A stretch of 64,000 nucleotides of DNA from Escherichia coli (GTDB lineage Bacteria > Pseudomonadota > Gammaproteobacteria > Enterobacterales > Enterobacteriaceae): the NCBI RefSeq assembly GCF_022846255.1, contig NZ_AP025682.1. The stretch is one strand, 5' to 3'. Below are positions 14,666 through 15,191 of the stretch, in pieces. Below the pieces are notes generated by a model that searched no databases, was not told where the DNA came from, and worked only from the letters and a program-made list of their open reading frames with translations. A program made the position numbers and the translations under genes. The stretch's first letter is position 1. Every line of letters begins with the position of its first letter.

Positions 14666-14790
14666 TGAACCGCCCCGGAAATCCTGGAGACTAAACTCTC
14701 TGAGAAAGAGGCAAACAGGATGACTAAAAAAACACGTTTTTCCCCCGAAGTCCGTCAACGGGCAGTTCAATGCTTTGTCGAATAAACATT
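14666..14790 (+). mobile_element. IS629/IS1203-like (IS3 family) left-end remnant with truncated orfA
   Basis: TGAACCGCCCCGGAAATCCTGGAGACTAAACTC terminal repeat followed by ATG encoding MTKKTRFSPEVRQRAV, then premature stop; rest of the element absent. Confidence 0.6.
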
Positions 14791-14883
14791 TACCTGAACG
14801 ATTAACTGCAACGGCTATCCTTACCGACAATCAACGTCAATAAAAATCTGTACTGACTCGTCAGCACTGGGTTCGATCAGTAG

Positions 14884-15010
14884 GAACATGAATTCAAAGG
14901 CCACCTTGCTGAATCTCAAGACTCCTCCGATTCCAAAGATAAACCCCGTCTTAAGTTCGCTGGCCTGAAATTCGGTGACTATTGTCTATATCGGGATCAC
15001 CACGGTTGTG
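14884..15010 (+). pseudogene. Internal fragment of a second porin gene (OmpC-family)
   Basis: Translates to EHEFKG...DSKDKPRLKFAGLKFGDY, paralogous to residues EYEFKG...[19 protein letters not shown] of the intact porin at 8985-10097; then frame is lost. Confidence 0.5.
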
Positions 15011-15191
15011 TGATTAATCATCGTCGATCATAAAGCGTCTATGGATGTACTGCGGCGTTCCTGCTACTGGTGATCACCCTGTGGTTGTGCAATTCCAAAC
15101 GGCTGAAGCGAGAGTAACAGACATCACGCCGCAATCGGGGGCGGCGTGTAGACGTGGTTAATTACTATCAAATATATTAATCAGGCCGATT

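Follow-up and report, generated by a model that had tools for sequence, protein, structure and literature searches.

The interval 14666–15190 of the window, the 64,000-nucleotide stretch of Escherichia coli DNA that was analyzed, is very probably (about 85%) non-coding debris, lying where two cargo modules of a tRNA-Phe-associated E. coli island meet (pepT-MFS to its left, patB-nhaC to its right), and consists of a chain of four unrelated fragments with a fifth outside its left edge. The open reading frame (ORF) list contains no intact gene in the interval, where the four remnants of unrelated genes are joined end to end. The gap without an intact gene runs from the start of pepT (14268 in the PGAP annotation; the longest ORF reaches 14274, minus strand) to the stop codon of nhaC at 15192 (minus strand), and PGAP annotates only a psiE pseudogene in 14666–15190. 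An earlier note on this DNA had described a scar of insertion sequence (IS) activity without an intact gene, which the ORF list and the fragment alignments bear out. It had counted two remnants, with a porin piece directly after an IS629 end; both are real, but there are four, and an IS110-family piece lies between these two. Since the fifth remnant, at 14478–14665, falls outside the interval, the remnant area measures about 670 bp with five pieces, as against 525 bp with two. The features discussed below are:

14478–14665, minus strand: IS911-like IS3-family fragment, element nt ~38–265 (5' leader and first ~55 orfA codons), with deletions of 16 nt and 1 nt
14666–14768, plus strand: IS629/IS1203-type IS3-family left end, nt 1–103 of 1310 bp (left inverted repeat TGAACCGCCCCGG..., leader, start of orfA)
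14720–14785, plus strand: chimeric 21-codon ORF, MTKKTRFSPEVRQRAV followed by QCFVE and a stop; truncated orfA running into foreign DNA
14769–14865, minus strand: N-terminus of an IS110-family, ISEc20-like transposase, codons about 8–40 (~33 codons), frameshifted (two frames), between the IS629 end and the porin piece
14866–14981, plus strand: OmpC-family general porin fragment, codons ~74–110, reading TGFDQ, an in-frame stop and EHEFKGHLAESQDSSDSKDKPRLKFAGLKFGDY
14982–15117, plus strand: psiE 3' fragment, codons ~89–136 (the last ~48) plus stop codon, interrupted by a TGA and frameshifted by a net deletion of 10 nt
15125–15148: GC-rich hairpin of 8 pairs (7 G-C), homologous to the K-12 hairpin between the convergent genes psiE and xylE
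15149–15191: AT-rich spacer of 43 bp (30% GC) from the hairpin to the nhaC stop codon
15192–17814, minus strand: two-gene operon of patB (MalY/PatB, 16636–17814) and nhaC (15192–16643), with an 8-nt overlap
17896–17924, minus strand: sigma-70-like promoter candidate upstream of patB, TAAACA-17-CATAAT, 9/12 in a consensus scan

The remnants and their relatives

The IS629-type end with a truncated orfA, which the earlier note had recognized, was recovered with 96.1% identity over 103 bp (14666–14768) to a full 1310-bp copy of O157:H7, and with 99% and 97% identity to the IS copies right of patB in CE10 and NMBU_W05E18 and in R12, respectively. Its left inverted repeat (14666–14693) matches nt 1–28 of full copies, and the flanks of different genomes diverge exactly at 14666. 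From the start of orfA at 14720, 16 codons are left, followed by five foreign codons and a stop at 14783–14785; the OrfA N-terminus of a full copy reads MTKNTRFSPEVRQRAV.... The remnant thus shares the left inverted repeat, leader and first 16 orfA codons with IS629/IS1203 of EHEC O157:H7 and Shigella at 94–99% identity, but unlike the full elements it keeps 103 of 1310 bp, which is too short to tell IS629 from IS1203. The right inverted repeat, the full length of ~1310 bp and orfB are absent from it. A blastn search with three full copies as queries found no other piece of the element in the whole window, and an Rfam scan of 14000–19500 found no programmed −1 frameshift element (the 'AL1L pseudoknot' of PGAP). 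Without right inverted repeat, orfB and frameshift pseudoknot, autonomous transposition of the remnant is impossible, and the missing right end leaves no pair of flanks in which a 3–4-bp target-site duplication could show.

On its left, this tip adjoins the IS911-like piece, which is 77% identical at the nucleotide level over 154 columns to an annotated IS911-family copy; the match is weaker in 14615–14665, where it was judged by eye. The ORF list places a short minus-strand ORF of 26 residues in this piece.

On its right, the tip is joined to the antisense IS110-like piece, for which blastn against 28 Gb found the 5' end of ISEc20 transposase genes (74.8% over 111 nt, E 1e-11), and which is 75% identical over 119 columns in a pairwise alignment with ISEc20. 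The peptides found by tblastn were AVAVNRSGKCLFDKAL, at 14/16, and ESVQIFIDVD. The minus strand of 14769–14865 corresponds in alignment to the 5' end of the ISEc20/ISSfl4 (IS110 family) transposase gene; in contrast to these elements, only the ~33 frameshifted codons remain and the non-coding ends are absent. Since nucleotide identity to ISEc20 is only ~75%, the source is a different, unnamed IS110-family element. The short peptide had no Pfam match, and a complete DEDD_Tnp_IS110 ORF, with its N-terminal DEDD and C-terminal domains, is absent.

The porin gene fragment of the earlier note was also substantiated. Its 116 bp are 84.5% identical at the nucleotide level to an OmpC-family porin gene of E. 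coli (E 6e-27, 28 Gb searched); for the porin at ~572 kb of the K-12 lineage, which we take to be nmpC, the figure is 83.6%. That note had made its reading depend on alignments to IS629/IS1203 and to porin genes, and both remnants match far beyond chance. The identity of the porin piece is secure at the nucleotide level despite a Pfam Porin_1 score (22.4 bits, E 9e-5, profile positions 46–81 of 337) just below the cut-off of 23.7 bits. It covers codons ~74–110, the region of the TGxGQWEY...FAGLKFGDY motif, at 80–84.5% nucleotide identity to E. coli OmpC-family porins (ompC and the ~572-kb gene of the K-12 lineage). It differs from them in comprising 116 bp of a ~1.1-kb gene, in its in-frame stop and in matching no sequenced E. 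coli porin allele; it is internal, without start or signal peptide, and does not cover the 16-strand barrel. The island also carries an intact OmpC-family porin gene at 8985–10097 (370 aa, Porin_1 493 bits), beside an IS3-like ISEc16 copy. This gene is distinct from the piece in the scar and is ruled out as its parent, the two being identical at 69% of nucleotides and 24 of 39 amino acids (62%).

That the IS629-type left end and the porin fragment are less than 200 bp apart and point in the same direction speaks for the history proposed in the earlier note, in which an IS629-like element entered a porin gene and most of the IS and of the porin was then deleted. We nevertheless consider this history highly improbable. 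Outside the IS tip the sequence is IS911-like, not porin, and nt 103 of the IS629 piece joins the ~97-bp antisense IS110-family transposase fragment, so that the porin begins only 97 bp further on. The porin piece itself is internal to its gene (codons 74–110) and joined on its other side to psiE, and none of 5426 complete genomes has IS629 in this porin lineage or a longer porin piece.

The psiE fragment together with the hairpin is 80% identical at the nucleotide level over 178 columns to K-12 psiE (E ~1e-40). Its three-frame translation reads YIGITTVV, a stop and LIIVDHKASMDVL, then LLLVITLWLCNSKRLKRE and a stop. PGAP calls a psiE pseudogene here in every genome inspected, with the flag 'frameshifted; internal stop; missing N-terminus', and an intact psiE ORF of ~136 codons is absent at the scar; a repaired 46-aa PsiE peptide had no Pfam match. 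The piece is collinear with the K-12 locus, running from the last ~48 psiE codons over the stop codon into the GC hairpin, which corresponds to the convergent psiE/xylE terminator of K-12. In contrast to K-12 psiE, the fragment is 80% identical, carries an internal stop and a 10-nt net deletion, and lies outside the native locus, with nhaC instead of xylE as the convergent gene.

At 80–85% identity to E. coli genes, the psiE and porin pieces suggest another enterobacterial source. The diagnostic residues TTVV and ASM of the psiE fragment were absent from every PsiE retrieved: when the repaired C-terminus was searched against proteins, the only matches were ordinary PsiE sequences of E. coli, Enterobacter and Klebsiella that lack them, and a degenerate DNA pattern for FVYIGITTVV, aimed at an intact psiE of this lineage, gave no match in metagenome contigs.

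A true IS terminus is present at one junction only, 14665/14666. The other three (14768/9, ~14865/6 and ~14981/2) fall inside the parent genes and hence are deletion or illegitimate-recombination joints. At the joint between IS110 and porin, a stretch of ~14 nt, CTGGnTTCGrTCA, is similar in both proxy parents, which fits microhomology-mediated joining, although these proxies are 75–84% identical to the pieces. In E. coli, IS629 is known to inactivate genes and to bring about genomic deletions, and IS-excision enhancer (IEE), which has been tied to IS629-associated deletions, joins ends with at least 4 bp of homology in vitro (PMC9943667). The likeness of the scar to IEE or microhomology deletions at IS3-family elements lies in the ~14 nt of similarity at this joint; we regard IEE as a mechanistic analogy only, as any illegitimate recombination could equally give such joints.

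The patB-nhaC operon at the right edge

The assignment of patB-nhaC is based on Pfam matches (Na_H_antiporter, 1.8e-61, for NhaC; Aminotran_1_2, 3.4e-35, for PatB) and on the PGAP annotation. As both genes lie on the minus strand with an 8-nt overlap, transcription proceeds from ~17900 towards 15192, which leaves the scar past the nhaC stop codon. The earlier note had placed the promoter of this operon in the rearranged DNA; the strand instead puts the scar 3' of the operon, and the likely promoter, read from 17924 to 17896, is ~2.7 kb away. This candidate falls into 17871–17928, a block shared with the patB upstream region of Pluralibacter at 81% identity. As a separate observation, the rearranged DNA adjoins the upstream region of the pepT-MFS operon, not that of patB-nhaC.

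Serratia fonticola and Pluralibacter gergoviae also have this gene pair, in unchanged order. DNA homology of patB-nhaC to other Enterobacterales (Serratia, Pluralibacter) begins inside nhaC, at 15210–15244, and ends at 17932, so the scar is not part of the cargo. To judge from these limits, patB-nhaC appears to have kept its own promoter; it would have arrived with it and gained foreign DNA at its 3' end only.

The hairpin begins 44 nt past the nhaC stop codon on the minus strand, and folding shows its stem to be stable on both strands. Its minus-strand tail, ATGTCTGTTA, passes the loose rule of a terminator scan with a poor U-tract (a weak T-tail). By analogy with K-12, the psiE-derived hairpin may serve patB-nhaC as a borrowed terminator; given the poor U-tract, this is a role that we infer. 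The spacer between hairpin and nhaC (15149–15191) matched neither the K-12 psiE locus nor the nhaC loci of Serratia and Pluralibacter.

We also searched for a donor of the psiE-nhaC adjacency. A scan of genome contigs for NhaC gave only relatives of at most 58% identity, from Firmicutes and Actinobacteria, and the protein database contains relatives of 86–88% identity from S. fonticola, S. grimesii and P. gergoviae. The Serratia and Pluralibacter nhaC loci were rejected as donors, as nhaC is not accompanied there by psiE, a porin gene or a matching IS, and as the homology of the DNA ends within this gene. A metagenome contig with an IS629-like end (86.5%) and an IS110 transposase 2–3 kb from nhaC was likewise rejected, since order and orientation differ and nothing else is shared with the scar. 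In S. fonticola CP023956.1 (3423–10284), patB-nhaC lies inside a xylose locus, in the order xylR-like regulator, patB, nhaC, XylA-like isomerase and FGGY-family kinase. In K-12 it is xylE that converges with psiE; the parallel may be coincidence, or possibly a clue to the presence of psiE DNA beside nhaC. A paper on a biofilm-related 'nhaC' in APEC (PMC9762606) was set aside, because its primers show that it concerns a different gene (ATGAGAGAAAAACCC...).

Distribution and variation of the left edge

The joint between the psiE fragment and nhaC occurs in 378 of 5426 complete E. coli genomes, and 14769–15190 is complete at 99–100% identity in about 336 of them; carriers include UTI89, UM146, F11 and CE10. 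The carriers vary at the left edge only. In NMBU_W05E18 and R12 the left flank switches exactly at 14666; in CE10 and AR_0013 the right end of a complete IS629-type element abuts 14850; and in 41 plasmid copies of the module ISEc38 abuts 14985. Among PLSDB plasmids we found only this ISEc38-truncated E. coli version, besides unrelated matches to ISEc20, ompC and psiE. The comparison with relatives for an intact copy, which the earlier note had proposed as a check, came out empty: no version of any fragment in the genomes and plasmids searched is more intact than the one described here.

The flank to the left of the scar in the window, the pepT-MFS module, is shared by only nine carriers. This module (pepT, encoding peptidase T, and an MFS transporter gene; 11834–14477) is rare; of the 5426 complete E. 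coli genomes, only 9 have its upstream region.

Many carriers have a full IS629-type copy in direct orientation at the equivalent of 18233/4 of the window, beyond patB, sometimes split by a group II intron. In CE10 and AR_0013, patB-nhaC is enclosed by two directly oriented full IS629-type copies; a group II intron (ltrA) interrupts both copies in AR_0013 and the right-hand one in CE10. This arrangement raises the possibility that the 103-bp end represents the residual left arm of a compound transposon, a unit flanked by IS629 that moved patB-nhaC, with the scar as a passenger, between islands and onto plasmids. In line with it, the first 103 bp of the copy at 18233/4 in NMBU_W05E18, R12 and CE10 are 97–99% identical to the remnant, and the module is plasmid-borne in 41 instances. 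We consider this origin possible but on balance unlikely, as no target-site duplications were found around the IS629-type copies inspected in related loci, single or paired, and as NMBU_W05E18, R12 and CE10 share one right flank beside the right-hand copy but vary in the left flank. Further, the window and Santai lack the right-hand copy and read through 18234–18287 into a phosphoethanolamine-transferase fragment.

From the junctions that are shared or variable in a handful of inspected loci, we infer an order of events. The joints of psiE, porin and IS110, which are common to essentially all chromosomal carriers, would be the oldest. Next, an IS629-type copy would have lost everything beyond nt 103. 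Later, the surviving IS tip would have become a hotspot for IS-mediated rearrangement or IS-IS recombination, for which reason the left flanks differ between genomes exactly at 14666. As the IS629-type copies show no target-site duplications, the events at the IS tip are not assignable to transposition, adjacent deletion or homologous recombination.

One could go further and imagine that the dead 103-bp tip is still an active site of plasticity, acting with the right inverted repeat of the full copy beyond patB or recombining with other IS629 copies, and that it has repeatedly reshuffled the left side and may have helped patB-nhaC onto plasmids, with the captured psiE hairpin as the terminator of the operon. 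We regard this extended scenario as doubtful.

The reading we prefer remains that of debris at a module boundary. The scar marks the border between two independently acquired cargo modules and, with five junctions within 700 bp, provides a convenient and highly specific marker by which the module can be followed through E. coli islands and plasmids. It is a commonplace result of IS activity, already sequenced, present in hundreds of public genomes and partly annotated, and not a new biological system. For annotation, the gain lies in the correction of two errors, the supposed porin disruption and the supposed rearranged promoter; otherwise its importance is small.

Conservation, decay and neighboring elements

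The conservation of the scar at 99–100% in hundreds of genomes, the retention of the IS leader and orfA start with the 21-codon ORF, and a minus-strand fold of 15100–15200 somewhat better than that of shuffled sequences (z = −2.3) could be taken as signs that the scar is functional; for example, it might encode a small RNA or a micro-protein translated from the truncated orfA, or the IS629 leader might drive an antisense regulator of nhaC. Several results make this extremely improbable. The Rfam scan (14000–19500) matched no RNA family in the scar, even at E ≤ 1, and we saw no evidence of function for the 21-codon chimeric ORF. The scar does not exceed its flanking genes (~99.4%) in identity among carriers, which by itself argues neither for nor against function and is consistent with recent spread. 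Natural variants of the CE10 and plasmid types lack the left 81–216 bp, and their patB-nhaC is still intact. Finally, stops and frameshifts mark the fragments: there is a stop in the porin frame, and a stop and a frameshift in psiE; the IS911 piece carries deletions. The scar itself probably has no function of its own.

Several further elements lie in the neighborhood. A tRNA-Phe gene (29022–29097, minus strand) is located beside an integrase-domain ORF (27562–28824; NF007246, 249 bits, below the 434-bit cut-off), which is a tyrosine recombinase in the Santai annotation. The region 27562–29097 is probably the attachment end of the island, about 14 kb from the scar. An Rfam match to a fluoride riboswitch at 18213–18257 was below threshold (18 bits as against 34) and was dismissed as chance. 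A 5' fragment of a phosphoethanolamine-transferase gene (18198–18287) is 93% identical to paralogues in NMBU_W05E18 and CE10. It is cut by a 1258-bp IS3-family element (18288–19545, minus strand), which is 100% identical to copies in other strains and absent in Santai. A full-length match to the Hfq-binding sRNA isrC (19355–19477, minus strand; RF01387, 135 bits against a 39-bit cut-off) lies right of the IS3 copy.
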